Shown in pieces: positions 22,950-42,075 of a stretch of DNA of 64,000 nucleotides; position 1 is the first letter of the stretch; each line of letters begins with the position of its first letter. The stretch spans positions 21,009 through 85,008 of the forward strand of contig QCNO01000003.1 of assembly GCA_003213165.1 (NCBI GenBank), written 5' to 3'. The notes under the pieces were generated by a model. It was not told the origin of the DNA. It saw only the letters and a program-made list of their open reading frames with translations, and did not search any database. Source of the stretch: OCS155 cluster bacterium AG-426-D23 (GTDB taxonomy: Bacteria > Actinomycetota > Acidimicrobiia > Actinomarinales > Actinomarinaceae). A program made the translations under genes and the position numbers.

Positions 22950-23031
22950 TGCCGAGAGTAGGATTCGAACCTACGAAGGCGTAGCCGGCAGATTTACAGT
23001 CTGCTCCCTTTGGCCGCTCGGGCATCTCGGC
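22950..23031 (-). tRNA. tRNA-Tyr (GTA anticodon, long variable arm)
   Basis: Cloverleaf: acceptor GCCGAGA/TCTCGGC, anticodon stem GCAGA/TCTGC with loop CT-GTA-AA, 13-nt variable arm, T arm GTAGG-TTCGAAT-CCTAC. 82 nt. Confidence 0.92.
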
Positions 23032-24846: not shown

Positions 24847-25798
24847 TAAATGGTTTTTTAGGCCTTACGCCTATCTCACTTATAGCATAAGCTGCACTTT
24901 TGTTAGCTATCTCAGCTGATGATTCTATAGATAAGCCTGTTTGTAAACCATAGAGATACCCACCGGCAAAAAAATCACCTGCTCCTGTTTTATCAACAAC
25001 AACTGCTTCCGAAGCATCAAATGAATACTTTTCTCTTCCTTCTAAAATTAAAACTCCATCTGGTCCAAGAGTACAAATTAACTGTCTAACATTTGGAAAT
25101 TTTGCACTAAAAAATTCTATCGATTCCTTTGTGGTATTTTTTTCAGAAAGTGAATTTAATTCATCTTCATTGCAAAATACATAATCAATATCGTCTGCAA
25201 TAAAGCTTGTGAAACTGTCTCGGTGCATCTCAACACAAAATACATCCGAGAGACTTATTGAATTTAGACCTCCAGATTCTTTATTTATCTTGGCAGCATT
25301 TAGGAAAGCTGATTTACTTGAAGGTTTATCCCATAAATATCCCTCCATATACAAAATTTTTGCTTTTTTAATTGCGTCAATATTTAAATCTTCAACTGAG
25401 AGATATTCACCAGCACCAAGATAGGTGTTCATTGTTCTTTCACCGTCAGGAGTAATAAAGATTGCACATAATCCAGTTTGATTATCTTCACTTTCAAAAA
25501 CTGTATAATCGTTGAGACCAGAATCTTTTAAACTTGACTTAAATTGTTTACCTAGATTATCCTTTGAAATTTTTCCAATAAAACCCACTTTTCCACCTAA
25601 TTGTGATATCCAATAAGCTGTATTGGCTGCAGATCCTCCGGCTTCGTAAACTGGATTTTTCATATTTTGAAGAAGAAAATTTGAACGTTCTTTGTCAACT
25701 AAAGTCATTCTTGCTTTATTTAAATTTAATTCATCAATTACAAATTCTTCAATTTGTTCTAAAGAATCAACTAATGCATTTCCAATACAAATAATCAC
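24839..25798 (-). CDS. PfkB-family carbohydrate/adenosine kinase
   Basis: 319-aa ORF with an N-terminal GG motif (YEAGGSAANTA) and the C-terminal DKTGAGDFFAGGYLYG ATP-binding signature. Confidence 0.85.
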   Translation of the reverse strand: MIICIGNALVDSLEQIEEFVIDELNLNKARMTLVDKERSNFLLQNMKNPVYEAGGSAANTAYWISQLGGKVGFIGKISKDNLGKQFKSSLKDSGLNDYTVFESEDNQTGLCAIFITPDGERTMNTYLGAGEYLSVEDLNIDAIKKAKILYMEGYLWDKPSSKSAFLNAAKINKESGGLNSISLSDVFCVEMHRDSFTSFIADDIDYVFCNEDELNSLSEKNTTKESIEFFSAKFPNVRQLICTLGPDGVLILEGREKYSFDASEAVVVDKTGAGDFFAGGYLYGLQTGLSIESSAEIANKSAAYAISEIGVRPKKPFTI

Positions 25799-25807
25799 AA
25801 ATAAAGT

Positions 25808-26158
25808 TTATATGATTTGTCCAGGATTTCCTTCTGAGTCATGAATATTTTCAGTAAAGTTTCTTAATTCTTTCATTCCACCAGACATATTATAAGCTTC
25901 TATATCTTGAGAAATCATATAGTTAGTCACTCTGGCCGACCTTGAACCAGAACGACATACAAATATATACTTTTCATTTTGATGAAAATTATTAATATTC
26001 TCTATTATTTCTCCCATTGGAATATGAATAGCACCTACGTGATGGCCAGATGTCCATTCATCATTTTCTCTGACATCAACAAGTACACATCCTTCTTCTA
26101 TCAAATTTTCAACCTCATTTGGTTGAACCGATGGAATGCTATTAATACCTAATTCCAC
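25808..26158 (-). CDS. Single-domain rhodanese (sulfurtransferase)
   Basis: 116-aa ORF with active-site loop CRSGSRS and the typical VDVRE..E...GH.. upstream motif. Confidence 0.85.
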   Translation of the reverse strand: MELGINSIPSVQPNEVENLIEEGCVLVDVRENDEWTSGHHVGAIHIPMGEIIENINNFHQNEKYIFVCRSGSRSARVTNYMISQDIEAYNMSGGMKELRNFTENIHDSEGNPGQII

Positions 26159-26978
26159 TTTGAGTTTGCCTTAATCTTCTTACTCTTTCAATCGTTGGCG
26201 GATGAGTTGAAAATAATTTACTAAAACTATTTCCAGAAAAAGCTTTTAGTGGATCAGATATAAATAGTTGACTAACTGCAGGGTTTACGTTCATTGGAAC
26301 TTTTGAATATCGTTCAATTTTTTCAAGGGCTGACGCTAAAGCTAATGGGTTGCCTGAGATTTCTGCACCTGTTTTATCAGCACCAAATTCTCTAGTTCTT
26401 GATATTGCCATTCTGATGATTAAAGAAGCTATTGGGGCAGCAATAAATGCCAAAATTATTATTGCAGGATGTGTATTTCTGTTTCTACTTCCACCACCCC
26501 AAAAAGCCATCCTTGACATAAATGAAACTGCAGCTGCCAACATTGCAGCAATACTTGATACTAAAATATCTCTGTTTTTTATATGTGATAATTCATGAGC
26601 CAAAACACCTTCTAGTTCGTCTTTATTCAGAAGGTTCAATATACCTGTGGTTACTGCAACTTTTGCATTTTTTGGATTTCTACCTGTTGCAAATGCATTT
26701 GGTTGATCACTGTTAATAATGTACAGTTCTGGCATTGGCATCTTCTCTTTTTGTGTAAGTTGAGTTATTATTTGTGTTACTTCAGTAAATTGACCTTCTT
26801 TTATTGGCTGCGCACGAGTTGATTTTATAGCTAAGTTTCCTGAGAAAAAATAGATGAATCCATTAAAAATTAAAGCAAAAAAAAGTGCAGAAACTAAATC
26901 AAAACCAAAAGCTGTTGCAGAAAACAATACAACTAAAGTCATAAGAGTTAGAAGAGCTGTAGTCTTTACAAAATTCAT
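26142..26978 (-). CDS. htpX: Membrane zinc metalloprotease HtpX (M48)
   Basis: 278-aa ORF with TM helices flanking HELSHIKNRD (HExxH) and C-terminal ...THPPTIERV... Confidence 0.9.
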   Translation of the reverse strand: MNFVKTTALLTLMTLVVLFSATAFGFDLVSALFFALIFNGFIYFFSGNLAIKSTRAQPIKEGQFTEVTQIITQLTQKEKMPMPELYIINSDQPNAFATGRNPKNAKVAVTTGILNLLNKDELEGVLAHELSHIKNRDILVSSIAAMLAAAVSFMSRMAFWGGGSRNRNTHPAIIILAFIAAPIASLIIRMAISRTREFGADKTGAEISGNPLALASALEKIERYSKVPMNVNPAVSQLFISDPLKAFSGNSFSKLFSTHPPTIERVRRLRQTQSGIRY

Positions 26979-27002: not shown

Positions 27003-28019
27003 TTATAACTTTTCTGCTATTAAGCAGTAAAAGCCTCCTAAACCATTTGAATCAACAATTGCTTTCAAGCCACTCAATTCAGAATTAATCTTTAATTTTT
27101 CAATTCCTTCGGCAGTTATATACTTATGTTGTAATTTATCAAAAAAAATATTAAAACCATTATCAAGTAAAAAATCTCTTTGTAATTTTAAAGTTACCTT
27201 ATAACCAAGAGTTGTAAGTTGTCTCGATATAGAAGAAAAATTTACGTCGTAAGTAATGTCTATATTTCCAGAACCTTCAATAGGGTCAACGGATAAATGG
27301 TGATTTTTGTATGTTCTTAACAATGAACTATACATTCTCTTATCTCTATTATCCTGTTCATAACCATAGTCAAATAGTAAAATTTTTTTTGGATTGATTT
27401 TTTTAATGACAGAATTTAAAAATTTATCTATATTGACTTGAATCTCAAACTCGTAATCTTCATTTGGAACTATGTTGTTTTTATTTATCCATTCAAGCCC
27501 TTCATTTCTCATCGGTTTTAATTCATATGATAATGAAGTGTCTTCTAGTAAAACTACTTTTTCATACCAACACTCATCTCTATATAGCCCAATAGAACAT
27601 GGGATATTGTCTAATATTTCATTTCCAAAAATTAAATCTGATGTATTGGTATTTAATTCATTAATTGTCGTATAAGTTTTTATTCCTTTTTTTATTAATT
27701 CATCTCTTGCAGTAGAGGACAGTTCAACTGCAGTAATTTCTTTTATACCTATTTGTTCTATTAAGGAACCTGTTCCAGAACCTATTTCTATAATATTTTT
27801 TAAATTACTTTTAGAATTTATCCAATTTCGTATGATTTTTCCAAAATATTTCGAAACTTCTGGAGATGTTAAAAAATCACCTTCTTTATCAGACCTTACT
27901 ATATCAGTATTAAAAAAACCTAGTTGCGAATATAAAGCTTCCTCCATAAAAGTGTCAAAATATATAAATTCAGTATCATATTTGTCTTTTATGTACGAGA
28001 GAAAATTTTTTTTTGGCAA
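27003..28019 (-). CDS. Class I SAM-dependent methyltransferase, DUF185 / MidA / NDUFAF7-like
   Basis: 338-aa ORF with the family hallmark GDFLTSPEVSKYFGKII and SAM-binding loop IIEIGSGTGSL. It starts 3 nt after the nuoN stop. Confidence 0.8.
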   Translation of the reverse strand: MPKKNFLSYIKDKYDTEFIYFDTFMEEALYSQLGFFNTDIVRSDKEGDFLTSPEVSKYFGKIIRNWINSKSNLKNIIEIGSGTGSLIEQIGIKEITAVELSSTARDELIKKGIKTYTTINELNTNTSDLIFGNEILDNIPCSIGLYRDECWYEKVVLLEDTSLSYELKPMRNEGLEWINKNNIVPNEDYEFEIQVNIDKFLNSVIKKINPKKILLFDYGYEQDNRDKRMYSSLLRTYKNHHLSVDPIEGSGNIDITYDVNFSSISRQLTTLGYKVTLKLQRDFLLDNGFNIFFDKLQHKYITAEGIEKLKINSELSGLKAIVDSNGLGGFYCLIAEKL

Positions 28020-28022: not shown

Positions 28023-29426
28023 TTAGTTGCCAAAAAATATCGAGGATACTTCTCCAAGATAACTAAAAATCCCTGGGAAGATTCCGGAAACAAATGTTAT
28101 GAGAACAGTAAATACACCAACCACTTTTAGAGGATTTTCAAATTGAAAAATTTTATCTTCATTTACGGATTTAAGCTCGTCCATCCATATAACTTTTGAT
28201 ATTCTTGCATAATAAACTAAAGCAATAACAGCATTTATTGCACCAACAACTCCTAGAGCGATTCCAATTGAATTTGCAGAGCCCAATAAGCTCCTAAATA
28301 CTACAAACTTTGCGAACCAACCACCTAAAGGAGGAATACCAGCAAGTGAGAAAAAAAAGATTGTTGTTAAAACTCCAGCTAAAGGTGATTTTCTTGCTAC
28401 TCCTCCCCACTCATAGAAATCTGATGATCCGGCATAATTGCTAAAAAGATGTACGGACAAAAATGCTCCTAAATTCATAAATGCGTAAATAATCAGATAA
28501 GTAACACTTGCAAAAATTCCATCTTGATAATCCCCAGTAATTCCAGATATTGCAATTGGAGCTAATATAAAACCAGCTTGTGAAATAGATGAATAAGCTA
28601 AAAGTCTTATAGGGTTATTTTGTTGTAATGCGACCAAATTGCCAAGCGTCATAGTTAAACCTGAAATAATCACAAGAATCACTCCCCAGCTTGAGCCTGA
28701 TCCTGCAAAAACTTTTGTTAGTAAAATAATTAGAGCAACAAAACCAGTTGCTTTTGAACTAACAGATAAATATGCAGTTATAGGAAGGGGTGCTCCCTCG
28801 TAAGTGTCTGGAGCCCATGAGTGAAAAGGAACAATGGATATCTTAAATCCAATACCAGAAATTACTAACATTGCACTGAGTAACACTACTGGAGAGCTAG
28901 CTAGAGATGCACTAAGCAAATACGAAGCGATATTAGAAAAGACCAGCTCACCCGAAAGACCGTATAAAAGTGAAAATCCATACAATATTAGAGAAGCTGA
29001 TAAAACTCCTAGTAGAAAAAACTTAATTGCACCCTCATTTGATTTTCTATCGCCTTTTTTCCAACCAGAAAGTAAAAACATTGGAGTTGAAGCAAGTTCA
29101 ATACCAATAAATATAGTTAACAAATCTCTAGAAGAGCTGACTATCAGTGCACCTAAAAGAGAACTAAGCAATAAGTAGTAATACTCTCCCTGATAATATT
29201 TATCACTTTCAATGAAGTTGATTGAGAGAAGGAAGGTTAAGTAAGTAATTAATATAAAGAGTCCTTTTAAAATAATTGAAAATTTGTCGACAACAAAACT
29301 ATTTTCAAAAGCGTAAATAGGTGAGGTATAGTTTGCCCATTGTATTACTAAAGGAGCCAGAGAAAATAAAGTTCCAAGAAGTGCAAAAGCAGCTACATAG
29401 TATTTTGATTTTCTTGGAAGGATCAA
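28023..29426 (-). CDS. nuoN: NADH-quinone oxidoreductase subunit N (operon 1); true start probably upstream near 29495-29501
   Basis: Antiporter-like polytopic protein last in the nuo order. The tracked TTG start removes a recognisable TM1 that is in frame upstream (ISINYFAISSELIVVFTIVGTLILDL). Confidence 0.9.
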   Translation of the reverse strand: MILPRKSKYYVAAFALLGTLFSLAPLVIQWANYTSPIYAFENSFVVDKFSIILKGLFILITYLTFLLSINFIESDKYYQGEYYYLLLSSLLGALIVSSSRDLLTIFIGIELASTPMFLLSGWKKGDRKSNEGAIKFFLLGVLSASLILYGFSLLYGLSGELVFSNIASYLLSASLASSPVVLLSAMLVISGIGFKISIVPFHSWAPDTYEGAPLPITAYLSVSSKATGFVALIILLTKVFAGSGSSWGVILVIISGLTMTLGNLVALQQNNPIRLLAYSSISQAGFILAPIAISGITGDYQDGIFASVTYLIIYAFMNLGAFLSVHLFSNYAGSSDFYEWGGVARKSPLAGVLTTIFFFSLAGIPPLGGWFAKFVVFRSLLGSANSIGIALGVVGAINAVIALVYYARISKVIWMDELKSVNEDKIFQFENPLKVVGVFTVLITFVSGIFPGIFSYLGEVSSIFFGN

Positions 29427-29503
29427 ATCAAGAATTAGTGTTCCAACTATGGTAAAAACTACAATAAGTTCTGAAGATATTGCAAAATAATTTATAGAAA
29501 TTT

Positions 29504-31072
29504 TTAACCCCCAAAGGCTTTGGATAGCATTGCTATAACCGCATCATTTGTTGCGCCAAATATTAATTTAGGAAATACCCCAATTAATACTGTTAAAATA
29601 ACCAGTGGAATCCATGCTGAAAGCTCATAAAAGTCTGCATCATGAAGGTCTTTATCTGACCATTCATCTGATGGCTCTCCTAAATTAACTCTTTGTAGCA
29701 TCCAAAGTAAATAACCTGCTGTTAAGACAGTGCCAATAGCTCCAGCAACCATAGAAGTCCTGAATACAGTTGTGTTTAAACCGTCTAGTGGATTATAAGC
29801 ACCTAATAAAGCCATAAATTCTCCCCAAAAGCCAGCTAGACCAGGGAGGCCTAATGAAGCCATTGCAGTAAACCCTAGCAATGCACCCGTTTTTGGAAGT
29901 AACTTCATGTTTCCACCCAGTCTGCCCATGTCTCTTGTGTGGTAGGTATGTGCCATAGAGCCTGACAAAAAGAATAATAGTCCAGTGATTACCCCATGAG
30001 CAACCATTCCTATCATTGCCGCATTGATTCCTATTGGTGTTAGAGAAGCTATTCCTAGCATTACAAATCCCATATGACCAACTGATGAAAAAGCGATAAG
30101 TCTCTTCAAATCTGTTTGTGCAAGACAAGCCAAAGATCCATATATAATTCCAATTGCAGAGAGAATAGCAATTGCTGGAGCCCACGCTTTTGCCTGCTCT
30201 GGAAGAATTGGTATCGCAATTCTAACAAAACCATATGATCCAAGCTTCAAAAGGATAGCAGCCAATAATACTGAACCAACTGTTGGTGCTGCAGTATGTG
30301 CATCTGGAAGCCATGTGTGAAGAGGCCACATTGGAACTTTTACAGCAAATCCCAAAAATAATACAGCAAATACAAGCGTTGCAAATGTTCCGGTAAATGC
30401 GCCTGAGGTTCCAAGCTCAATTAACTCAGGAATACTAAATGTTTTATTTCCCCGATAATATAGGCCTAAAAAACCAAGTAACATAAAAGCTGATCCAAAT
30501 AATGTGAAAACAAAAAACTTAATACTTGCATAAAGTCTCGTCTCTATCTGATTTTTAAATCCAGATACGGTCCTTACAGTTTTATCACCCCATATCCCGA
30601 TCATGAAGTACATAGGTAATAATACAATTTCAAAAAATACAAAGAAAAGAATCAAGTCTAACGCTACAAATGTTCCATTCATTCCAGTCTCGAGAACAAG
30701 TATTAAAGCTAAAAAACCTTTGGGACTTTTTGGTTCAGGTAGATGCTCTAAAGAGTAGATTATTGCCAAAACGGTAATAAATGTTGATAGCACTAAAAGG
30801 GGTAGGGAGATGCCGTCTATGCCTATTTCATAATTTGCATTTATACTTTTAATCCAAGAAATCTTATTGCCAAGTTGGAGCTTTTCGGCTGACGAAAAAT
30901 CAAATTGAAAAAGCAAGATTGCACTTAAAACAAAAGTGATTAGTGAAGAAGCTAATGCAAACCGTTTAATTAATTGCTCTTGAGCTTTTGGTATTAGGGT
31001 GATTACAAATGCACTTATCAAAGGGAAAAAGACTACTGCAGAAAGCCCAATACCATTTGTAAATAATTCCAC
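29504..31072 (-). CDS. nuoM: NADH-quinone oxidoreductase subunit M (operon 1)
   Basis: 522-aa antiporter-like subunit with ...PMWPLHTWLPDAHTAAPT..., the NuoM/ND4 signature. Confidence 0.93.
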   Translation of the reverse strand: MELFTNGIGLSAVVFFPLISAFVITLIPKAQEQLIKRFALASSLITFVLSAILLFQFDFSSAEKLQLGNKISWIKSINANYEIGIDGISLPLLVLSTFITVLAIIYSLEHLPEPKSPKGFLALILVLETGMNGTFVALDLILFFVFFEIVLLPMYFMIGIWGDKTVRTVSGFKNQIETRLYASIKFFVFTLFGSAFMLLGFLGLYYRGNKTFSIPELIELGTSGAFTGTFATLVFAVLFLGFAVKVPMWPLHTWLPDAHTAAPTVGSVLLAAILLKLGSYGFVRIAIPILPEQAKAWAPAIAILSAIGIIYGSLACLAQTDLKRLIAFSSVGHMGFVMLGIASLTPIGINAAMIGMVAHGVITGLLFFLSGSMAHTYHTRDMGRLGGNMKLLPKTGALLGFTAMASLGLPGLAGFWGEFMALLGAYNPLDGLNTTVFRTSMVAGAIGTVLTAGYLLWMLQRVNLGEPSDEWSDKDLHDADFYELSAWIPLVILTVLIGVFPKLIFGATNDAVIAMLSKAFGG

Positions 31073-31080
31073 TTTTCCCC

Positions 31081-33096
31081 CTATATTATAAATAAAATTA
31101 ATAGACTAATTGTCACAACGCCACCTAAAAACATCATTAAATATTGTTGTGTCTTACCTGTTTGTAATAATTTGACCTTACCGCCAAAACTATCAGTACC
31201 CGATGAAGACATATTTAACAATTTATCAATTCCATTTTGATCAAAATTATTGTACACAATACCGCCCAATAAAGAAGCTATTTGTCCAAAACCATTGACA
31301 AATCTATCAATTACATTTGTGTTAAATTTATCTACTGCTCTAGAAATATTTATTTTTACTGGATCAATTACATACTTGAAATAAAAGTCATCTAAATAAT
31401 ACTTGTTTTCAAGAACTGACCAGATTGGTTGAATTTTAATTTTATCATCACCTGTTTCAGCACTTCCTTGCAGTTGATATAAGTAATATCCAAGTGCGAT
31501 ACCAAGCAAACCTGCTAACAAGCCACTTGATAGTGCAAATAAGTCAAAGCTTTCAGGATGGTATTCAACAATTTTGTTCTTCCTTGTCGTAACCCAGTCT
31601 GTGAATCCTGTATAAACACCAGGAATATTTACCCAACCTGAGGCTATCGCAAAGACAGACAATGCCAAAAGCGGTGTTGTCATAAGATTGTGAGACTCGT
31701 GAGGATGACCATGGCCTCTATACTCTCCAAGAAATGTTAAAGAGACTGCTCTTGTCATATAAAATGCTGTTATAAACGCTCCTAAAACTGCTATAAAAAA
31801 GAACGTTATTTCTCCTTCATGATTAAAAGACGCAAGAATTTCGTCTTTAGAGAAAAAACCTGCGAATGGTGGGAGTCCTGCCAAAGCAACTGTTCCAATT
31901 ATGAATGTTGCAAACGTCTTTGGCATAACTTTTCTTAATCCCCCCATTTCTAACATACTATTGCTATGCACAGCATGTATAACAGACCCTGCTCCCAGAA
32001 ACAACAGAGCTTTAAAGAATGCATGAGTCCATAAATGAAATAATGCGGCAGTATATGCACCTGAACCAATTGCAGCAACCATATAGCCTAGCTGACTTAC
32101 TGTTGAGTATGCGAGAACCTTTTTTAGGTCGTCTTGAACAACTGCAATTAATCCCGCTGCTAGTAAAGTGATTACACCAAAAAGCATCACAATATCTAAT
32201 GCATCAGGTGCCATTGATTTATAAAATGGAAACATTCTTGCTAGTAAATAAACACCGGCTGTAACCATTGTTGCTGCATGCATAAGTGCAGAGACTGGTG
32301 TTGGACCTGCCATAGCATCAGGCAACCAAACATGTAATGGAAATTGAGCACTCTTGCCCATGGCGCCAATAAATAATAAAATTGCGGCGATAAATGCAAC
32401 TGTAGATAGCTTTTCATATTCATGTGTTGCCTGATAAAGAATTTCAGAAATTCTCAATGTACCAGTGTTTAAAGCTAAAATAATTATTCCAATCATCAAA
32501 CCTACGTCAGCTATCTTATTTGTAATAAATGCTTTCATAGCAGCAGAAGAATTGTCTTTTTTCTCCCAATAGTGTCCGATTAATAAGTAAGAACAGACGC
32601 CAACAAGTTCCCATCCAATTAAAATTTGAATTAGTGTGGGAGAGGACACTAAAACTAACATACTTCCAGCAAATAAAGTTAGCGATGTAAAGAAAAAAGT
32701 ATATCTGATTTCTCCCTCCATGTAATTTGTTGCATAAATAAAGACAAGCAAGGCAACCGTTCCAACAACAAAATACATCATTATTGAGAGACCATCGACA
32801 ACCCAACCAAACTCAATATCAAATACACCTATACTTCCAACGTTTATAAAAAATTCGTTTACTACACCACTAGTAATGTGGGAGTACATAAGTGCAGAAC
32901 TATACAAGAATATTAATCCTATTGTAGCTAATGCTACTTCAGCACCCTTTAAAGGGAGATGCTTACCCATGAAAGTTATTATCAATGCAGCTACAAAAGG
33001 TAGTAGTACTAATAACCATGCATACTGAGCTAAAAGTCCACCATCAGTATAAATTAATTCACCTTCAGCAAAAATAGTTGTAGTGAAATTTACCAT
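31081..33096 (-). CDS. nuoL: NADH-quinone oxidoreductase subunit L (operon 1)
   Basis: 671-aa ORF with ...KSAQFPLHVWLPDAMAGPTPVSALMHAATMVTAGVY..., the NuoL/ND5 signature, plus a long C-terminal lateral-helix region. Confidence 0.94.
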   Translation of the reverse strand: MVNFTTTIFAEGELIYTDGGLLAQYAWLLVLLPFVAALIITFMGKHLPLKGAEVALATIGLIFLYSSALMYSHITSGVVNEFFINVGSIGVFDIEFGWVVDGLSIMMYFVVGTVALLVFIYATNYMEGEIRYTFFFTSLTLFAGSMLVLVSSPTLIQILIGWELVGVCSYLLIGHYWEKKDNSSAAMKAFITNKIADVGLMIGIIILALNTGTLRISEILYQATHEYEKLSTVAFIAAILLFIGAMGKSAQFPLHVWLPDAMAGPTPVSALMHAATMVTAGVYLLARMFPFYKSMAPDALDIVMLFGVITLLAAGLIAVVQDDLKKVLAYSTVSQLGYMVAAIGSGAYTAALFHLWTHAFFKALLFLGAGSVIHAVHSNSMLEMGGLRKVMPKTFATFIIGTVALAGLPPFAGFFSKDEILASFNHEGEITFFFIAVLGAFITAFYMTRAVSLTFLGEYRGHGHPHESHNLMTTPLLALSVFAIASGWVNIPGVYTGFTDWVTTRKNKIVEYHPESFDLFALSSGLLAGLLGIALGYYLYQLQGSAETGDDKIKIQPIWSVLENKYYLDDFYFKYVIDPVKINISRAVDKFNTNVIDRFVNGFGQIASLLGGIVYNNFDQNGIDKLLNMSSSGTDSFGGKVKLLQTGKTQQYLMMFLGGVVTISLLILFII

Positions 33097-33395
33097 TTCA
33101 TTAAATCAAATTCATTTATGTTGGCTGTTTGTCTATTTCTAAACAGCATAAGAACAATCGCAAGTCCTATCCCAACCTCAGCTGCTGCAATTGTGATTAT
33201 AAAAATTGTAAAAATTTGCCCTTGCATCATAGCGTCCGCAAGCATTGTATCAAACATAATGAAATTAATATTTACAGAGTTAAGAATTAGCTCTATTGAC
33301 AGAAGGACCATCACCGCATTTCTTCGGACTAAAATTCCGTAAATACCTAATGAAAATAAAGCAGCAGCAACTACTAATACAGGTTGGACAATCAA
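33090..33395 (-). CDS. nuoK: NADH-quinone oxidoreductase subunit K (operon 1)
   Basis: 101-aa, 3-TM protein with the conserved membrane Glu (LLSIELILNSVN ... AAAEVGIGLAI). Confidence 0.9.
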   Translation of the reverse strand: MIVQPVLVVAAALFSLGIYGILVRRNAVMVLLSIELILNSVNINFIMFDTMLADAMMQGQIFTIFIITIAAAEVGIGLAIVLMLFRNRQTANINEFDLMKW

Positions 33396-33910
33396 ACTTG
33401 ATCCTCATCAATCAGTGCTTCATCTTTTCTTGCTAATGTAATACCTCCTATTAGGGCAGCAAGCAAAATAAATGAAACTAATTCAAAAGGAAATACAAAT
33501 CTACTGAGTAAAATTTCACCAAGCAATTCAGTTGACGACCCAGAAGTAATTACAACCTCACCATCAAATCCATTTACTAATATATATGAAAACAAGAAAA
33601 ATATTGAACCTGCGATTGCCGCACCTAACTTTTTATTTTTATCGTTGTCAAGCTCAGCATTTTTACCCAGGGGAGCTCTAGTTATCATAATTCCAAATAA
33701 AAAGAGAACGATGACTGCGCCAATATAGACAAGAACTAGTACAAGAGCAACAAACTCTGTAGATAAAAGTAAAAACAATACTGAAGTTAAAGCAAGTGTG
33801 AAAACAAGTGAAATAGCAGCATGAATAACATTAGAAGTCGTAACAACTCTGACTGCTGTTGTAATTAGTAATAAAAGAACGAAATAAGTTACTATTTCAA
33901 AAATTTCCAT
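33392..33910 (-). CDS. nuoJ: NADH-quinone oxidoreductase subunit J (operon 1)
   Basis: 172-aa hydrophobic protein in the I-J-K position; ...VYIGAVIVLFLFGIM... is typical of NuoJ/ND6. Confidence 0.88.
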   Translation of the reverse strand: MEIFEIVTYFVLLLLITTAVRVVTTSNVIHAAISLVFTLALTSVLFLLLSTEFVALVLVLVYIGAVIVLFLFGIMITRAPLGKNAELDNDKNKKLGAAIAGSIFFLFSYILVNGFDGEVVITSGSSTELLGEILLSRFVFPFELVSFILLAALIGGITLARKDEALIDEDQV

Positions 33911-34396
33911 TTAACTTTCGAGTCCTTCAGGATCTGGAACAGTTTGAAGCCAATCATCTAATCGTTCTTTGTCGTGAAGCATATCGCCCATGTTAAATTC
34001 AGAATATTCATATTCTGGTGACCAAAATAAAGCATCGAATGGACAAACTTCAACACAGATCCCACAGTACATACATAACGCATAGTCAATGTCAAATCGA
34101 TCTAGAACAGCCCTACTTCTTTGTCTGCCTCCAGGTTTTGAAGGAGGTTGTAATTCTTTGTGGCCTTCTATATAAATACACCAGTCAGGACATTGTCGTG
34201 CACAAAGCATACAACTAGTACATGCTTCTTGATCTAAAGCAATAACTCCTCTTGCTCTCGGTGCAAGTTTTTCTTTTTCAAATGGGTAATTTACATTCGG
34301 TTTTGAATGGAAAGGAGATAGAGTTTTAAGCATATTTACTATGACGATCTTAATTCCAATTAAAAATCCCGGTACTTTTGGTCTAAAGTTTTTCAT
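33911..34396 (-). CDS. nuoI: NADH-quinone oxidoreductase subunit I (operon 1, short form)
   Basis: 161-aa ORF with two 4Fe-4S motifs, CTSCMLCARQCP and CMYCGICVEVCP. Confidence 0.93.
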   Translation of the reverse strand: MKNFRPKVPGFLIGIKIVIVNMLKTLSPFHSKPNVNYPFEKEKLAPRARGVIALDQEACTSCMLCARQCPDWCIYIEGHKELQPPSKPGGRQRSRAVLDRFDIDYALCMYCGICVEVCPFDALFWSPEYEYSEFNMGDMLHDKERLDDWLQTVPDPEGLES

Positions 34397-35367
34397 TAGA
34401 ATCCAACTTTCATAATTGCTGTTACAAGAATATTAACTAAAGATGCTGGGATTAGTATCTTCCACGCTAAGTTTTGTAATTGATCTTCTCTAAATCTTGG
34501 CTGTGACCACCTTATTGCTACCAAAATAAATCCTAAAATAGCTGTTTTTGTTAAAAGGACAATTGGTCCATAAAAGTTAACCCATTCGGTTGGCAAAAGT
34601 GGCACATGATAGCCACCAAGAAATAGTGTTGAGGCAATTGCACATAAAATGAACATATTCATATATTCGGAAATATAAAAAATAAGGAATCTTATACCAG
34701 AGTATTCTGTCATAAAACCCATAGTTAATTCGGATTCGCCAATAGGCATATCGAATGGAACTCTCATCATTTCAGCTGTCGCCGCAACCATAAAAATTAA
34801 AAACCCAACTATCTGACCGCCTACAACAAAAGGAACTCCCCATTCAATTTGTTTTTCTACAATTCCAACTAAAGACATAGTTTCAGCTTGAATAACAACT
34901 CCAACAACTGCAAGTATCAGTGGAAGTTCATACGCTATTAGCTGCCCAGCTGCTCTCAACCCTCCCATTAGGGAGTACTTATTTGCTGATGACCATCCAG
35001 CAGTTAATACACCTATAGTTCCCAATGAGCTTATAGCGAGTGCAAAAAAGACACCTAATTCTAAATCTGCAACAACTAACGTAGGGCTCAATGGAACTAC
35101 AGCAAACAAAGCTACACAAGAAACCATTACATACGCAGGCGCCCATTTAAATACTGGCCTGTCCACCTCAGTTGGGATTATGTCTTCTTTTTGAATAAAT
35201 TTTAGAATTTCAGCTACTGGAAATATAAAACCTCTAAGTCCTACATGCAAAGGTCCAGGTCTTCTCTGCATCCATGAAGCACCTTTAACATCCATTATTG
35301 TGAAAGTAATTGCACCAGTTAAAGCAGCTCCTGCAAGAAGGCCTACCTTTATCAAAACCTCTGTCAT
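34396..35367 (-). CDS. nuoH: NADH-quinone oxidoreductase subunit H (operon 1)
   Basis: 323-aa polytopic ORF with the VPFDMPIGESELTMGFMTEYSG signature of NuoH/ND1. Confidence 0.93.
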   Translation of the reverse strand: MTEVLIKVGLLAGAALTGAITFTIMDVKGASWMQRRPGPLHVGLRGFIFPVAEILKFIQKEDIIPTEVDRPVFKWAPAYVMVSCVALFAVVPLSPTLVVADLELGVFFALAISSLGTIGVLTAGWSSANKYSLMGGLRAAGQLIAYELPLILAVVGVVIQAETMSLVGIVEKQIEWGVPFVVGGQIVGFLIFMVAATAEMMRVPFDMPIGESELTMGFMTEYSGIRFLIFYISEYMNMFILCAIASTLFLGGYHVPLLPTEWVNFYGPIVLLTKTAILGFILVAIRWSQPRFREDQLQNLAWKILIPASLVNILVTAIMKVGF

Positions 35368-36560
35368 CTGTCTACATCTCCTAATACAAAATCTAAACTA
35401 CCCATTATTGCAATCAAGTCCGGTAGCAAAGCACCTTCAAGCAAATTAGGCAAAATAGATATATTGCTAAAAGAAGCTGTTCTTACTTTAAGCCTATATG
35501 GCCCTAACCCTCCATCAGATATTATGTAATAACCCATTTCTCCTTTTGGATTTTCAGCTCTTACATATGTACGTCCTTTAGGGACTTTTATGACCTTGGG
35601 TACCTTAGCTTGTAAAGGTCCAGAGGGCATTGAATCAATAGCTTGCAAAACTATTTTTGCGGATTCAACCATTTCTTTAACTCTTACATCCCATCGATCA
35701 TAACAATCTCCGTTCTCGCCAACGGGAATTTCATATTCAAATTGATCATATGGCAAATAATCTGTTTGAGTTCTCAAGTCTGATTTGACACCTGAAGCTC
35801 TAAGTATTGGACCAGATACTCCAAATGCTTCTGCGATCTCAGGAGTTAAGACGCCAACATCTTTTGTTCTTTTTTTAAATACTTCATTTCCACCAATTAG
35901 ATTCTGAAATTGATCAGCTGCCTCTATAACTTTTTGCATGGCTATTTTTGTATCTCTATAAAATCCCGCAGGTAAATCTTGAATATTTTTTTTTGTAGTT
36001 GGACCAGCTCCAGCAGCAGGTTTTACTCCACCTATTCGATTAAAGTTTGGATGAAAGCGACCGCCAGTTACTGACTCAATTAAATCTAAAACTCTTTCTC
36101 TGTCTTCCATTGCATAAAAAATTGGAGTTAACGCGCCAACTTCCAGAGCATACGCTCCATTAAATACAAAATGTGAAGAAATTCTGGCCATCTCGGTAAG
36201 AATTAATCGAATATATTTAGCTCTATCAGGTACTTCAATTTCCATTAATCTCTCAGCACCAGCTATAAATGGAATTTCATTGGAAAAACCAGCAACCCAA
36301 TCTATACGGTTTACGAGTGTTGTTATTTGGGGATATGTTCTAACTTCTGCCAATTTTTCATAGCCACGATGCATGTAACCAAGAACGGGTTTTACGTCAT
36401 GAACTTTTTCTCCATCTACTTTAGCGACCAATCTCAACACTCCGTGTGTAGATGGATGTTGAGGTCCTATATTCAGTGTCATGTCTTCAGTTTCTATTTC
36501 GACAGATACAGATGCCTCTGAAAAGTTCTTAATATTTTGTGGATCTAATGCATTAACCAT
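35364..36560 (-). CDS. nuoD: NADH-quinone oxidoreductase subunit D (operon 1)
   Basis: 398-aa ORF with NIGPQHPSTHGVLRL, GYMHRGYEKL and C-terminal LGDVDR. Confidence 0.95.
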   Translation of the reverse strand: MVNALDPQNIKNFSEASVSVEIETEDMTLNIGPQHPSTHGVLRLVAKVDGEKVHDVKPVLGYMHRGYEKLAEVRTYPQITTLVNRIDWVAGFSNEIPFIAGAERLMEIEVPDRAKYIRLILTEMARISSHFVFNGAYALEVGALTPIFYAMEDRERVLDLIESVTGGRFHPNFNRIGGVKPAAGAGPTTKKNIQDLPAGFYRDTKIAMQKVIEAADQFQNLIGGNEVFKKRTKDVGVLTPEIAEAFGVSGPILRASGVKSDLRTQTDYLPYDQFEYEIPVGENGDCYDRWDVRVKEMVESAKIVLQAIDSMPSGPLQAKVPKVIKVPKGRTYVRAENPKGEMGYYIISDGGLGPYRLKVRTASFSNISILPNLLEGALLPDLIAIMGSLDFVLGDVDR

Positions 36561-37098
36561 CTACTTGTTCACCACTTTCTGAATCTTCTGGCATACCCTC
36601 TACGTCCACATCTCCGGGCCAAGGCTTTACCTCCCTACTGATTAATTCAAAAGATTTGAGCATAGGGTTTCCTTCGTATCCATCAGGAAGATAAAGTTTT
36701 TCAAGATTTGGATGATTTGCAAAACTTATTCCAAACATTTCATATGCTTCTCTCTCATGCCAGTTGGCTCCTTCATATGTTCCAACTAGAGAATCAATTT
36801 GTGGTTCTGATTTATCAATAGTTGTAGAAACAGTAATTAAATTTGTATTTTCTACATCAGATAAGCAGGTAATTAATTCGAAACACGGTGTAACGCTTTC
36901 TTTAGGAGCTTCACCAACTGAAACATCATTGTCCCAATCCACTGCTGAGAGCCAAGAGAAAAATTTTAAGTTGAACTCATCTCTAAGTTGTTCATGTGTT
37001 TCAATCCATTGTGTTGAATCAACCTTGATATTGATTGTTTCAAACTCCAACACTGCGTTTGTAAAACTTTCTTTTATATTGTTAAAAAAATCTTCCAT
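36553..37098 (-). CDS. nuoC: NADH-quinone oxidoreductase subunit C (operon 1)
   Basis: 181-aa ORF with ...GANWHEREAYEMFGISFANHPN..., the NuoC/30-kDa signature. Confidence 0.92.
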   Translation of the reverse strand: MEDFFNNIKESFTNAVLEFETINIKVDSTQWIETHEQLRDEFNLKFFSWLSAVDWDNDVSVGEAPKESVTPCFELITCLSDVENTNLITVSTTIDKSEPQIDSLVGTYEGANWHEREAYEMFGISFANHPNLEKLYLPDGYEGNPMLKSFELISREVKPWPGDVDVEGMPEDSESGEQVDG

Positions 37099-37099
37099 G

Positions 37100-37597
37100 T
37101 TAAATAGGCTCTGTCTGAACTTCTGACCATTTTTCCTTCATATCCTCACCACGAATTTTTTTCTGAAGAAGAATTATTCCCTCCTGAAGCGCTTCTGGTC
37201 TTGGCGGACAACCTGGAACGTATACATCTACAGGAATTAATTGATCAACGCCCTTGGTGACTGAGTAAGAATCCCAATACGGGCCACCGCTATTAGAGCA
37301 TGAGCCCATTGAAATGACGTACTTTGGTTCAGGCATTTGGTCATAAAGTCTTTTGACTGAAGGAGCCATCTTATCTGTCACTGTTCCAGCAACAATCATG
37401 AAATCAGCCTGTCGTGGAGATGCGGGAAGTGGAATTACTCCTAATCTCATGAAATCATGCCTAGGGCCACTTACAGCCATAACCTCAATAGCACAGCATG
37501 CTAACCCAAATTGAAAGTACCAAAGTGAATATGATCTAGCCCAGTTAAAGACTGATGATATAGGTTTTGGAAGGCCGAATTTGTCTATGACTCCCAC
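37100..37597 (-). CDS. nuoB: NADH-quinone oxidoreductase subunit B (operon 1)
   Basis: 165-aa ORF with GLACCAIE ... GSCSNSGG ... PGCPPRPE, the cluster N2 ligands. Confidence 0.95.
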
Positions 37598-37953
37598 TTG
37601 AGCACATCCTTTCTTATTGCGTAAATAAGGCCAATCAAAAGAATGAAAATAAAAACAAACATTTCAATTAAACCAAAATAACCCAACTTTTCTAAATTGA
37701 TAGCCCATGGAAATATGAAAACTGCTTCAACATCAAAAATTACAAAAAGTAAACCGAATATATAGTACCTTACATATGTTTGACTCCATCCTGTACCTAC
37801 AGGATCTACACCACATTCATAAGTTTGCAGTTTTTCAGCATAGGGTTTGTTTGGTCTGAGCACGGAGGCTACCCCGAGTAATAGTACGACCAGAAATAGG
37901 CCGAATCCCAGCACTGCTCCTATGGTCACGTAGTCTTGAAAATAAGAAATCAT
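37585..37953 (-). CDS. nuoA: NADH-quinone oxidoreductase subunit A (operon 1)
   Basis: 122-aa, 3-TM protein with TYECGVDP and [11 protein letters not shown] motifs; first gene of the operon. Confidence 0.92.
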
Positions 37954-38034: not shown

Positions 38035-39123
38035 GTGATTAATAAACATTTTTTAGAAGAACCCAATCTTGTAGACCTTTCCAAGGAAATATATAAAGCA
38101 GTAGTTCAAGATAAATTAGAAATAAATACAAGATTTAATTTGTTATCAGATGATATTTATGACGCAGAAACTATAAACTTTATACTGGCAGACGGACTTG
38201 GTTATGAAAATCTAAATAGTACAGATTCTTATCTAAATCAAAATGTTACCAAGTCTATTAATACAACATTTCCTTCATCAACAAACGTAGCGTTATCATC
38301 AATTGCGTTTATGAGAAATCCAATTGAGCACGGGTTGATAGGGTATTACATGTTTGACAAATCACAATACGGCCTAATTAATGCCTTAAATTGGAATGAA
38401 AATAATAAAAATTTATTATTAAATGATTTTTTTCAAAAACAAAATTCAATTTGGCAAGTTTTTAAAGAAAACAAAATTCATGCTAAAAATTTCCAACCTA
38501 GAAATTTGGTTGAAACTCCTCTATCGAATTTTTTATATAATGTATCGAATATCATTCCATATGATGACGAGCAGAACTTAATCGATTTAATGTCAGAATC
38601 TACCATTTTGGAAAATAAGTTTAACTTTATTTATTATCCCTTAATTGATGTTACAGCCCATGTATTCGGAGTGAACTCAGAAGAGTGGCAGTTAGAAATT
38701 AGCAAATTTGAAAAATTAGTTAAGGAGATTTCAAGTATAAGTAATAAGAAAACAAAAACAATAATTTCAGCTGATCATGGTCTTGTAAATATTGACGAAG
38801 AACGCCGTCATCTTTTGAATTACAGTGATGATTTACAAATATATGGAGATCAACGTTCAGTTTATATAAATGGACCTAAAGAAAGTGTTTTAGAAACTTT
38901 TTCTGAAATACCTGGTGAGTTGTTGGAGCAACATGAGTTGACTTATCTTTTAGGTGAACCGACAAACGAATTTTTGCAATCAATTTTTCCTGATTTTTGT
39001 TTTTTAGTTGAAAATAAAAATATTGTTTATCCAAAACACCTTTCGGCTCAATTAAAGGGTTACCATGGAGGTTTGTCGAAAAGTGAATTAGAAATTCCAA
39101 TAATTGAACTTTCTAACTACTAA
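38035..39123 (+). CDS. Alkaline-phosphatase-superfamily enzyme (nucleotide pyrophosphatase/phosphodiesterase-like)
   Basis: 362-aa ORF (GTG start) with the ordered metal/nucleophile motifs ILADGLG, FPSSTNVA (Thr nucleophile), IDVTAHVFG, ISADHG and GYHGGLSKSELEIP. Confidence 0.75.
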   Translation: MINKHFLEEPNLVDLSKEIYKAVVQDKLEINTRFNLLSDDIYDAETINFILADGLGYENLNSTDSYLNQNVTKSINTTFPSSTNVALSSIAFMRNPIEHGLIGYYMFDKSQYGLINALNWNENNKNLLLNDFFQKQNSIWQVFKENKIHAKNFQPRNLVETPLSNFLYNVSNIIPYDDEQNLIDLMSESTILENKFNFIYYPLIDVTAHVFGVNSEEWQLEISKFEKLVKEISSISNKKTKTIISADHGLVNIDEERRHLLNYSDDLQIYGDQRSVYINGPKESVLETFSEIPGELLEQHELTYLLGEPTNEFLQSIFPDFCFLVENKNIVYPKHLSAQLKGYHGGLSKSELEIPIIELSNY

Positions 39124-40005: not shown

Positions 40006-40809
40006 TTAATTCGGTTGGTATGTTCCAAAAAATACTTGCCAGGCAAGACAAGTCTTAGCAAGCAAGCTTAGCCAAATGTAAGCTCTTTCACCGTATAGAT
40101 AGTCTTTCCATTTACCTACTTGCTTATATTGCAAAATCATATTTATTGAGAAAGTATTAAAGAATAAAAATATACTTACGAAAATCCATACTACAAATTG
40201 TGGGACTCCCTGGGGATTAGAATCAGTTGCAACGCCATCTCCTATGAGATTAACAAATATAAAAATCCATGGTGTAATACCAACCAAACAGCCCATGATA
40301 TAACTTGTCCAGTCAACTTTTTCAGTATATTGATTGTGAACTTCCATCATCCAACCAAACCAACACATTGCTGCATTCATAAAAAATATTCCAGCTAAAG
40401 CCCATACATCATAAATTCCTACAAGTAAAGCAATTAGGACTATCATCACAGATGCACTGATTGAGTATTCAATCCAACGCACTTTATTTATTCCTTTTGA
40501 TAAGTCGCTTTTATATTTGTTGTAAAAAGGACCGGAAATAAGATAGTGAGCAACGGCTGAAGCAAGTAAAAAGGTTGCTACAGCCGGACCAAAGTTTGTA
40601 ACTTCTCTCCATATTTCAAGTTCAGGTACTAATGCAAAACTTGAAGGATCTTCTGGAGAACCAACTCCTACTAATTGAGTTAATGTTATTGGCACAACAA
40701 AATCTGAATTCACAACAGTGCCTAACCAAAAAAGTAAACCACCTTGTATCAAGTGAACAGTACCCATAATGATATTGAATCTTTTAAGTTTCTTTATCTT
40801 AATTTCCAT
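40006..40809 (-). CDS. Heliorhodopsin (retinal-binding 7-TM photoreceptor, inverted topology)
   Basis: 267-aa 7-TM ORF with full-length resemblance to prototype heliorhodopsin 48C12. Matching segments: GTVHLIQ (TM1 His), AVAHYLISG (TM2 His), RWIEYSISASVMIVLIA (TM3 counterion Glu), and GERAYIWLSLLAKTCLAWQVF (TM7 Schiff-base Lys). A GGGGGAG ribosome-binding site precedes the ATG. Confidence 0.9.
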   Translation of the reverse strand: MEIKIKKLKRFNIIMGTVHLIQGGLLFWLGTVVNSDFVVPITLTQLVGVGSPEDPSSFALVPELEIWREVTNFGPAVATFLLASAVAHYLISGPFYNKYKSDLSKGINKVRWIEYSISASVMIVLIALLVGIYDVWALAGIFFMNAAMCWFGWMMEVHNQYTEKVDWTSYIMGCLVGITPWIFIFVNLIGDGVATDSNPQGVPQFVVWIFVSIFLFFNTFSINMILQYKQVGKWKDYLYGERAYIWLSLLAKTCLAWQVFFGTYQPN

Positions 40810-40863: not shown

Positions 40864-41061
40864 ATGATGGATAAACAACTAATTTTCTCAGAAATTGAAT
40901 CAATGATTTTTGACATTGAAACCGCAATAAAATCTCTTGCAAATTCAAGAGAGTATATCGCGGAAGATGATTATTCAAGAGCATTTACTCACTTGGCAGA
41001 AATAGAAATTGAATTACAGACTTTGGCTGGAAGGGTGGCGTATATTAAATCAAGCCTTTGA
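40864..41061 (+). CDS. Hypothetical 65-aa helical protein divergent from heliorhodopsin
   Basis: Open frame starting 54 nt from the heliorhodopsin start on the opposite strand. Acidic, predicted all-helical, no recognisable family. Its 3' end overlaps the convergent ABC ATPase gene by 12 nt. Confidence 0.35.
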   Translation: MMDKQLIFSEIESMIFDIETAIKSLANSREYIAEDDYSRAFTHLAEIEIELQTLAGRVAYIKSSL

Positions 41062-42075
41062 CGGAAAAGTAGTTACCTCAGAAATTTCAATATTAATTCT
41101 GTCACCAGCTTCATAAATAGTGTTAGGTAAAGAACGTGCTCTAAAAACTTCACCTTTACTATTTTGAAATGATATTACCTGATCGTGGCCATAGAAGGTA
41201 CATTCTTTAACCAAGTAACTTCCGTCTGAATCTAAAGTGAGTTCAATACACTCAGGTCTAATTGATACATCTAAAGCACCATCATAAGCAGATACAAAAG
41301 TTCCTAAAGATGTCTCAACTCTACCGTTAACTGAGTAGCCCTTTAATATATTGGGGTCACCTACAGAGTTCGCCACAGTTTGGCTAACTGGATTTAAATA
41401 AATTTCTTGCGGCGTAGCGCTTTGTATAACTTTTCCATTTTCTAACACACTAACTACATCGCACACTGACAATGCTTCCTCTTGATCATGAGTTACAATT
41501 ATCGCAGTAGTCTCAGTTTTCCTTAAGAGATAAACTACTTCGTCTCTTAATTCCCTGGCCATATGTGCATCTAAGCTTGTAAATGGCTCATCTAGAAGAA
41601 TTACTTCCGGACCGGGAGCTATCGCCCTTGCAAGTGCAACTCTTTGTTGTTGACCACCAGATAGTTCTTGAGGATATTTATTTTTATAATTTTCTAAATT
41701 ACACATTTCTAAAACTTCTTCTAATCTTCCTTCATTTATTTCATTTTTGGAAAGTCCAAAAGATATATTTTTTTCAACGTCTAGATGTGGAAATAATGCA
41801 TAGTCTTGGAAAACCATACCAACATTTCTATCTTCAGGAGGTACAAAAACTTCATCGCTTGAAATGATTTGATTTCTCATTTCTATTAAACCAGAGTCTT
41901 GTTTTTCAAATCCAGCAATTAATCTTAATGCAGTAGTCTTTCCTGAGCCTGACATTCCCAACACGCCAACAATTGATCCATTCCAAACGTCCAAATTAAA
42001 ATCTGACAAAACAGTCTCTTTTTCGTAAGACTTTGTTACTGATCTTGCTCGTATAATTAAATTTTCAAATGCCAT
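41050..42075 (-). CDS. ABC importer ATP-binding protein (Fe3+/polyamine-type, C-terminal TOBE-like domain)
   Basis: 341-aa ORF with Walker A GMSGSGKTT, signature LSGGQQQRVALARA and Walker B ILLDEPFTSLD. Confidence 0.92.
   Translation of the reverse strand: MAFENLIIRARSVTKSYEKETVLSDFNLDVWNGSIVGVLGMSGSGKTTALRLIAGFEKQDSGLIEMRNQIISSDEVFVPPEDRNVGMVFQDYALFPHLDVEKNISFGLSKNEINEGRLEEVLEMCNLENYKNKYPQELSGGQQQRVALARAIAPGPEVILLDEPFTSLDAHMARELRDEVVYLLRKTETTAIIVTHDQEEALSVCDVVSVLENGKVIQSATPQEIYLNPVSQTVANSVGDPNILKGYSVNGRVETSLGTFVSAYDGALDVSIRPECIELTLDSDGSYLVKECTFYGHDQVISFQNSKGEVFRARSLPNTIYEAGDRINIEISEVTTFPSKA

Follow-up and report, generated by a model that had tools for sequence, protein, structure and literature searches.

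An 11-gene complex I-type operon with a tryptophan at the NuoD quinone site and an adjoining NDUFAF7-like methyltransferase gene in Candidatus Actinomarina

Layout, conservation and transcription of operon 1

The window analysed here is a 64,000-nt stretch of the genome of OCS155 cluster bacterium AG-426-D23, and all coordinates are positions in it. It contains two operons for subunits of respiratory complex I (nuo), of which one, operon 1 (28023-37953, minus strand), is our subject. Open reading frame (ORF) calls and Pfam searches resolve operon 1 into 11 consecutive genes in the order nuoA-B-C-D-H-I-J-K-L-M-N. Pfam searches of the ORFs found no nuoE, nuoF or nuoG, the genes of the NADH-oxidizing module (N-module), between nuoD1 and nuoH1 or anywhere else in the operon. 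A sequence-only reading of this DNA had proposed both this gene order and a 4-nt overlap of the nuoD stop with the nuoH start; both are borne out, the overlap being ATGA. The ORFs are all intact, with overlapping start and stop codons, and the junctions from nuoA1 down to a PfkB kinase gene at 24839 lie between -17 and +24 nt, except for a 77-nt gap between nuoM1 and nuoN1.

The operon, with every gene on the minus strand, opens with nuoA1 (37585-37953, 122 residues; PF00507, 5.5e-36), in which an FDVE motif can be read directly, and nuoB1 (37100-37597, 165 residues; PF01058, 1.2e-28), whose product carries cluster N2. These are followed by nuoC1 (36553-37098, 181 residues; PF00329, 2.8e-31), which encodes an acidic C-terminal tail, by nuoD1 (35364-36560, 398 residues; PF00346, 1.7e-82), which encodes a NuoD of the tryptophan (Trp) type described below, and by nuoH1 (34396-35367, 323 residues; PF00146, 2.6e-96). 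The product of nuoI1 (33911-34396, 161 residues) carries clusters N6a and N6b and is the likely point of electron entry. The operon is completed by nuoJ1 (33392-33910, 172 residues; PF00499, 7.2e-32), nuoK1 (33090-33395, 101 residues; PF00420, 4.3e-28), nuoL1 (31081-33096, 671 residues; PF00361 and PF00662), nuoM1 (29504-31072, 522 residues; PF00361, 9.5e-70) and nuoN1 (28023-29426, 467 residues; PF00361, 1e-59).

Operon 2 (51877-64000, minus strand) lies 13.9 kb from operon 1 and is seen by Pfam as nuoD(partial)-E-F-G-H-I-J-K-L-M-N. Contigs that are 99.98% identical over 5 kb carry the full 14-gene nuoA-N order, which confirms the earlier description of operon 2 as the classical type with nuoD-E-F-G-H. 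Subunits of the two operons are 30-51% identical (I 33%, C 36%, D 44% and B 51% for the docking subunits), and in a neighbour-joining tree NuoD2 falls with Thermus Nqo4 while NuoD1 occupies a separate clade. Identity and tree together exclude a recent duplication of operon 2 as the origin of operon 1. They support instead an ancient divergence, in keeping with the separate origin that had been proposed from the shorter operon 1 subunits, whose lengths had been quoted correctly (161 versus 204 residues for NuoI and 323 versus 365 for NuoH).

Around operon 2, a 44-residue hydrophobic ORF (51739-51873, minus strand) begins 3 nt past nuoN2. One metatranscriptome contig (run X5) omits 685 nt, from 51054 to 51740, and some population genomes appear to be without this spacer. 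A near-identical contig (L081) has a gene for a geranylgeranyl-reductase-family flavoprotein (PF01494, GGR_cat; 6019-7284 of that contig) directly upstream of nuoA2, and this protein presumably resembles the MenJ-type menaquinone saturases of Actinobacteria.

To place operon 1 among its relatives we retrieved 80 related loci from across the Acidimicrobiia, many of them in single-cell genomes, with NuoD1 orthologues 66-99% identical to the protein of the window. Those at 99% are on single-cell contigs of Candidatus Actinomarina (OCS155, Acidimicrobiia). The A-B-C-D-H-I-J-K-L-M-N order is kept in 80 of 80 loci, and all 11 genes are present wherever the locus is long enough. In six non-marine Acidimicrobiia loci, nuoA1 is preceded at a distance of 2.3-7.1 kb by operon 2-type genes on the same strand; because both operon types thus occur on one contig in other Acidimicrobiia, their pairing is old and not an assembly artefact. 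Against two Actinomarina relatives, the ratio of nonsynonymous to synonymous substitution rates (dN/dS) is 0.00-0.06 for core subunits of operon 1, 0.12-0.22 for NuoC1, the least conserved core subunit, and 0.16-0.24 for the methyltransferase gene that follows the operon.

Contigs over both operons are present in four marine metatranscriptomes. Contig depth, which is a rough guide to expression only, gives median word depths of 9.8, 9.0, 1.3 and 7.7 for operon 1 and 10.4, 2.4, 0.5 and 5.4 for operon 2. Plus-strand genes at 38.2-39.8 kb, between the operons, have medians of 2.2, 0, 0 and 0.5 in the same four data sets, and this near-zero depth argues against DNA carry-over. The expression comparison that the sequence-only reading had called for therefore gives about equal contig depth, suggesting that operon 1 is transcribed at a level similar to operon 2. 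Over nuoB1 (37151-37687), depth rises to 36-73 in all four runs, which is probably cross-mapping from conserved nuoB genes of other organisms and not a real local peak.

Cofactor ligands, the NuoD1 quinone site and the methyltransferase

Both the complete set of N2 ligands in NuoB1 and the two 4Fe-4S motifs of NuoI1, claimed from the sequence at the outset, are present: alignment to bovine PSST identifies the N2 cysteines as C34, C35, C100 and C130, and NuoI1 has two CxxCxxCxxxCP motifs for clusters N6a and N6b. NuoH1 keeps the acidic loop between transmembrane helices (TM) 5 and 6, and both membrane glutamates of NuoK1 can be read directly (SIELIL and AAAEVG). In NuoL1, NuoM1 and NuoN1, reading against known motifs shows the TM5 Glu, the TM7 Lys and the TM8 Lys/His. 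NuoM1, whose best PDB match is Paracoccus NuoM, has a conserved histidine (SMAHTYHTRD) where the YDR/YER motif has Asp in Paracoccus NuoM and Glu in NuoM2. This histidine is kept as [AS]H[TR]YHTR in more than 60 orthologues, at what we take to be the position of the TM12 acidic residue (Glu407 of E. coli NuoM).

Scores against NCBIfam subunit models were compared with the curated cut-offs. NuoL1 exceeds the NuoL equivalog cut-off (617.8 versus 556), NuoB1 exceeds that of a NuoB subfamily, and NuoD1 is above the cut-off of NuoD model NF004739 (414.5 versus 360) and below that of TIGR01962 (422.6 versus 459.35), while NuoI1, NuoC1 and NuoH1 fall below all cut-offs. The best scores of NuoI1, NuoB1 and NuoC1 are with mitochondrial or alphaproteobacterial subunits and not with cyanobacterial NDH-1, the best PDB matches of NuoI1 being mitochondrial TYKY subunits; those of NuoH1, in contrast, are cyanobacterial and chloroplast NdhA. 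An affinity of the whole complex to cyanobacterial NDH-1 was considered and rejected: a leaning in this direction is seen in NuoH1 and in part in NuoD1, but not in NuoI1, NuoB1 or NuoC1, and the cut-offs of the photosynthetic NDH-1 models are missed by NuoD1 (NdhH, 353 versus 583) and NuoI1 (NdhI, 56.2 versus 302).

NuoD1 finds its best PDB matches in Thermus Nqo4 (6.7e-100) and then cyanobacterial NdhH (3.3e-95), and it has the HGVLR and HRG motifs expected of it (HPSTHGVLRL and MHRGYEK). In HMMER alignments its sequence NRIDW is matched with PRMDY in Nqo4, SRWDY in NdhH and DRLDY in the mitochondrial protein, which places Trp88 (codon TGG, 36297-36299, minus strand) at the position of the quinone-binding tyrosine, Tyr87 of Thermus Nqo4. 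Trp88 is present in 80 of 80 NuoD1 orthologues. Alignments also place Glu140 (36141-36143, minus strand) at the position of Nqo4 Asp139, the partner of His38. The corresponding histidine, His39, is kept in NuoD1, and at least 65 of the 80 orthologues have Glu at the 140 position by regular expression. NuoD2 keeps the canonical Tyr and Asp. The β1-β2 loop of NuoD1 is retained, and a 13-residue insertion, PAAGAGPTTKKNI, follows RIGGVK (35982-36020, minus strand; a gap in Nqo4, NdhH and the mitochondrial 49-kDa subunit). Regular expressions find the insertion in 66 of the 80 orthologues and show it to be absent from those sister-clade proteins in which the loop length could be read in this way. 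Direct reading of the N-terminal GPQHPSTHGVLRL and the C-terminal GSLDFVLGDVDR found no cysteine of the NiFe-binding pairs, and the large subunits of Mbh, Mbs and FHL score far below complex I subunits against NuoD1.

As judged from these alignments, the acceptor pocket of NuoD1 is non-canonical and its tryptophan is fixed in the clade. The earlier view that the quinone (Q) and proton-pumping (P) modules look functional stands for the intact Fe-S ligands and fails for the Q-module as a canonical one, given the change of Tyr to Trp88 and of Asp to Glu140. A search of the literature for a natural Tyr-to-Trp variant of the Q site returned nothing relevant, the one apparent match being a different protein.

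Three nucleotides past nuoN1 lies a gene (27003-28019, minus strand) for a 338-residue methyltransferase of the NDUFAF7/MidA family. It scores 79.6 bits on PF02636 (gathering cut-off 23.3 bits), has the S-adenosylmethionine motif GSGTG within IIEIGSGTGSL, and matches 4f3n, 5ztz (the Dictyostelium NDUFAF7 homologue, 2.4e-9) and 1zkd in the PDB. The gene follows nuoN1 in 30 of 38 loci of Actinomarina and in 8 loci from other Acidimicrobiia. NDUFAF7 acts on Arg-85 of the bovine 49-kDa subunit by symmetric dimethylation, and this residue, part of the peptide KCDPHIGLLHRGTEK, is about 7 Å away from N2 (PMC3750175); the modification is found in Paracoccus and not in E. coli, and Thermus has a threonine at this position (PMC3750175; PMC3829151). 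The equivalent residue of NuoD1 by alignment is Arg65 of MHRGYEK (36366-36368, minus strand), and HRG is present in 81 of 81 D1-type sequences. NuoD2 reads HTG (LHTGMEK), with Thr at the methylation target. Because the target arginine is in NuoD1 and not in NuoD2, we infer that the methyltransferase serves NuoD1. The earlier statement that the operon has no candidate donor-docking gene holds for known docking genes, but it has to make room for this complex I-specific accessory gene.

Relatives and surroundings

In a search against 1.84 billion representative proteins, the NuoD1 clade forms one full-length cluster at 50% identity, and no full-length relative outside it exceeds 49% identity. We aligned 154 sequences (the 150 nearest representatives together with NuoD1, NuoD2, Nqo4 and NdhH), in which the Tyr87 column holds Trp in 31 and Tyr in 101. 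NuoD1 clusters in a neighbour-joining tree with three other Trp/HRG proteins. Its sister proteins come from cultured Actinomycetes, including Kribbella, Aeromicrobium, Actinomadura, Streptosporangium, Knoellia and Terrabacter. Two sets of 80 Actinomycetes loci (L085-L244) gave the same orphan family: in 159 of the 160 loci the Trp-type NuoD gene has no further nuo gene within 10 kb, and the remaining locus also has NuoM- and NuoN-like genes. An NDUFAF7-like gene is near the orphan NuoD in 71 and 77 loci of the respective sets (148 of 160), sometimes abutting it. In the loci inspected from the first set it is upstream on the same strand; examples of methyltransferase and NuoD-like pairs are 7233-8114 and 10001-11203 in L102, and 8998-10005 and 10001-11200 in L086. 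HRG is present in 80 of 80 orphan NuoD partners of the second set. The methyltransferase thus travels with NuoD of the HRG/Trp type.

A Methanofastidiosia contig (L245, 3935-10341) has genes for NuoB and a Trp-type NuoCD fusion, for a polyferredoxin with a fused FrhB/FpoF-type F420 domain and for an FAD-oxidase/CCG (HdrD-like) protein. No membrane subunits were found on this contig, and its gene content looks like that of a soluble 'headless Fpo'-style module. Trp at the Tyr87 site therefore recurs, often without a quinone-facing membrane arm encoded nearby.

Clustering of the ORFs flanking operon 1 across the 80 loci returned only five families, and no ferredoxin, flavodoxin or FrhB. Besides the methyltransferase, these are an M48/HtpX-like peptidase (26142-26978), a rhodanese (25808-26158) and a PfkB kinase (24839-25798), assigned by Pfam and forming a co-directional tail of operon 1 on the minus strand, and a divergent PF01663 gene. 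The rhodanese and kinase genes are kept within Actinomarina only, whereas the peptidase gene also comes after the operon in two non-Actinomarina Acidimicrobiia loci. The PF01663 gene (type I phosphodiesterase/alkaline-phosphatase superfamily; 38035-39123, plus strand) adjoins nuoA1; it is kept in 63 of the 80 loci, 25 of them from non-Actinomarina Acidimicrobiia, and its metatranscriptome coverage is very low.

The stretch that separates the nuo operons, whose layout is already in the literature, encodes a heliorhodopsin (40006-40809, minus strand), an ABC transporter for ferric iron (41050-44878) and an iron repressor of the DtxR/IdeR type (45265-45951). The left third (1-23031) holds a ribosomal-protein cluster with rpoB- and rpoC-sized genes and, at 21971-22555, an ECF-type sigma factor gene. 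An Rfam scan of the window found four tRNAs only (21523-21596 and 22777-23031).

Electron donor and acceptor

An operon of this kind without an N-module is no novelty: it has been reported for this lineage and belongs to a recognized class. López-Pérez et al. 2020 (PMC7771536) describe the Actinomarinales heliorhodopsin as always lying between two nuo operons, one of them without EFG and suggested to use F420, and a 2021 preprint (10.1101/2021.02.01.429150) describes an 11-gene operon followed by NDUFAF7, htpX, pspE and adenosine kinase, with a 14-subunit operon nearby. The passages of these two papers that we consulted mention neither Trp88 nor the orphan methyltransferase/NuoD pair. In the literature that we searched, with incomplete coverage, we likewise did not find the Trp88 pocket, the match of methyltransferase to Arg65 or the orphan pair of the Actinomycetes. 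The 11-subunit complex was surveyed as a class in 2011, with actinobacteria among its hosts (PMC3144371).

Desulfitobacterium hafniense has the same 11 genes in the same order (nuoABCDHIJKLMN) and no NuoEFG (PMC3144371; PMC11238625). The bacterial class as a whole shares with operon 1 the retained Fe-S ligands and a NuoD without NiFe cysteine pairs, and ferredoxin is among its proposed donors. Operon 1 differs in its host, an aerobic, streamlined marine photoheterotroph with a full 14-subunit operon alongside, in the Trp at the NuoD Q site and in the NDUFAF7-like methyltransferase gene within the operon. Cyanobacterial and chloroplast NDH-1, a ferredoxin:plastoquinone oxidoreductase (6hum, 6khi), likewise has an 11-subunit core without an N-module; the resemblance extends to NuoH1, with NdhA as best match, and to NuoD1, with NdhH, which also has HRG, as second best. 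However, NdhH keeps the Q-site Tyr and Asp, the NdhH and NdhI cut-offs are missed, as noted above, and NuoI1, NuoB1 and NuoC1 are closer to mitochondrial-type subunits. Pfam scans of operon 1 and the larger surrounding ORFs, which were not a dedicated search, turned up no NdhS-, NdhV- or NdhO-like genes.

Mitochondrial and Paracoccus complex I (PMC3750175; PMC3829151) share with NuoD1 the H-R-G-x-E-K context of NDUFS2. NuoB1, NuoI1 and NuoC1 are most similar to this type, and the PF02636 methyltransferase of operon 1 adds to the likeness; these enzymes nevertheless have NuoEFG and the Q-site Tyr, and methylation of NuoD1 is predicted only. The canonical 14-subunit enzyme (operon 2 and the Nqo complex of Thermus thermophilus) has homologous Q- and P-modules and the same cofactor ligands, but NuoD2 and Nqo4 carry Tyr, Asp and HTG where NuoD1 carries Trp, Glu and HRG, and NuoM2 has the TM12 Glu where NuoM1 has His. 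Fpo of Methanosarcina mazei, finally, shares the 11 core subunits and has another input in place of the N-module. Operon 1 subunits score well below the Fpo cut-offs of NCBIfam, and a search of the window and flanks found no FpoF/FrhB domain; Fpo reduces methanophenazine.

We tentatively favour, at somewhat less than even confidence, the reading that operon 1 encodes an expressed and selectively maintained 11-subunit proton pump of the complex I type that lacks the NADH-oxidizing head and takes its electrons from a ferredoxin-type donor. The donor is favoured because of the analogy with other N-module-less complexes, for which reduced ferredoxin has been proposed among other candidates (PMC11238625; PMC3144371). 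Electrons would enter singly at the exposed clusters of NuoI1 from a soluble low-potential carrier, most likely ferredoxin, and pass from N6a to N6b and N2 and on to a membrane quinone in the remodelled pocket. The quinone would be of the menaquinone type, judging by the phylum, and its reduction would drive proton export. In the manner of NDUFAF7 with Arg-85 of NDUFS2, the methyltransferase would dimethylate the N2-adjacent Arg65 of NuoD1, and this may help assembly or adjust N2. The NADH-dependent 14-subunit enzyme of operon 2 would operate in parallel. In favour of this reading are the gene set with its motifs, the order kept in related loci, purifying selection, the metatranscriptome depths and the pairing of the methyltransferase with NuoD1. 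No N-module or donor gene was found in operon 1, in the rest of the 64-kb window apart from operon 2, or in the flanks of the related loci, which also speaks for it.

Several observations weigh against this reading. Tryptophan in place of the proton-donating tyrosine raises doubt about ordinary quinone reduction. Neither a ferredoxin nor a ferredoxin-reducing enzyme was identified in the window or the flanks of related loci. The mitochondrial and alphaproteobacterial subunits to which NuoI1, NuoB1 and NuoC1 are closest dock NuoG. Transcription has been gauged from contig depth, with the coarseness mentioned above. Lastly, operon 2 with its NuoEFG is a neighbour of operon 1, both in Actinomarina and in six or more further loci of the Acidimicrobiia, which makes a shared head possible.

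Such a shared head is the main rival explanation, although we consider it unlikely. NuoEFG of operon 2 would dock on both Q/P-modules, and operon 1 would specify an isoenzyme that is driven by NADH but differs in its acceptor pocket or its coupling. This would fit the short distance between the operons, both in Actinomarina and, on the same strand, in the six other Acidimicrobiia loci, the resemblance of the electron-entry subunits NuoB1, NuoI1 and NuoC1 to those of N-module-bearing complexes, and the similar transcript levels of the two operons. However, the docking subunits of the paralogues are only 33-51% identical, the insertion of 13 residues sets NuoD1 apart, and NuoC1 and NuoI1 do not have the lengths of their paralogues. 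The nuoEFG bins are not deeper than nuoH-N of operon 2 in run X1, a very weak argument in the same direction. We know of no N-module-less complex that has been shown to borrow a head.

A wider reading takes in the relatives of NuoD1, and we regard it as quite unlikely. The Acidimicrobiia enzyme would represent the membrane-bound form within a Trp-type NuoD lineage that extends across the Actinomycetota and is serviced by NDUFAF7-like methyltransferases, with a pocket that no longer performs the classical Tyr/His quinone chemistry. It would use a different acceptor, or run in reverse on the proton-motive force generated by rhodopsin to make low-potential reductant, and the orphan pairs of the Actinomycetes would be the same module in a swap-in or stand-alone form.

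Reverse or non-quinone operation of the operon 1 complex, taken by itself, seems to us distinctly improbable. Here either another acceptor would be reduced, or proton-motive force, for example from a proton-pumping rhodopsin, would push electrons from quinol to a low-potential carrier; the organism is a rhodopsin photoheterotroph (PMC7771536). This operation is suggested only by the clade-wide change of the catalytic Tyr to Trp, with the change of the His38-partner Asp to Glu, and by the settings of other Trp-type homologues, which lack a nearby membrane arm in the orphan loci of the Actinomycetes and in the NuoB-CD-polyferredoxin::FrhB module of Methanofastidiosia. By contrast, His39, the β1-β2 loop, N2 and the acidic loop of NuoH1 are all kept, as quinone chemistry expects. 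Aromatic replacements of Yarrowia Tyr144 reportedly retain some reductase activity with short-chain quinones, which also counts against this reading.

Highly improbable, in our view, is an Fpo-type F420H2 dehydrogenase with an FpoF-like input subunit encoded elsewhere in the genome, as suggested by López-Pérez et al. 2020. Actinomarinales synthesize F420 and have genes for F420-dependent oxidoreductases (PMC7771536), and operon 1 has the same 11 core genes as fpo; the proposal itself rests on at most 35% identity to M. mazei Fpo. On the FpoD model, NuoD1 scores no better than the canonical NuoD2, the only operon 2 subunit scanned (339.7 versus 346.8 bits, cut-off 600), and the cut-offs of FpoH (239.1 versus 475), FpoI (51.1 versus 180), FpoC (70.5 versus 220) and FpoL (375.8 versus 1050) are missed as well. 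With the genuine FrhB/FpoF domain of L245 as query, the best E in 1.6 Mb of Acidimicrobiia sequence surrounding these operons (the window and loci L001-L084) was 0.17, although fpoF need not be linked to the operon. The model scores and this search leave the F420 reading of operon 1 with no specific support.

That operon 1 is a non-functional relic or an assembly artefact is refuted, with nothing found in its favour: pseudogenization is excluded by the dN/dS of 0.00-0.06 and the intact ORFs, and chimeric assembly by the order kept in 80 independent loci, by both operon types sharing a contig elsewhere and by the same layout in two papers, while the operon is also present in metatranscriptomes.

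Relative to the literature searched, this analysis adds the NuoD1 pocket with Trp88, the correspondence of the methyltransferase with Arg65 and the orphan pair of the Actinomycetes, and the interest of these additions is modest. Candidatus Actinomarina, an abundant and extremely streamlined ocean bacterium, still keeps 11 extra respiratory genes under strong selection. The fixed Trp at the proton-donating tyrosine of the Q site is a natural experiment on the catalytic site of complex I, and so is a dedicated NDUFAF7-like methyltransferase matched to the only NuoD with the target arginine. Their pairing would offer a bacterial system for the role of NDUFS2 Arg-85 methylation, which is relevant to the assembly of mitochondrial complex I.

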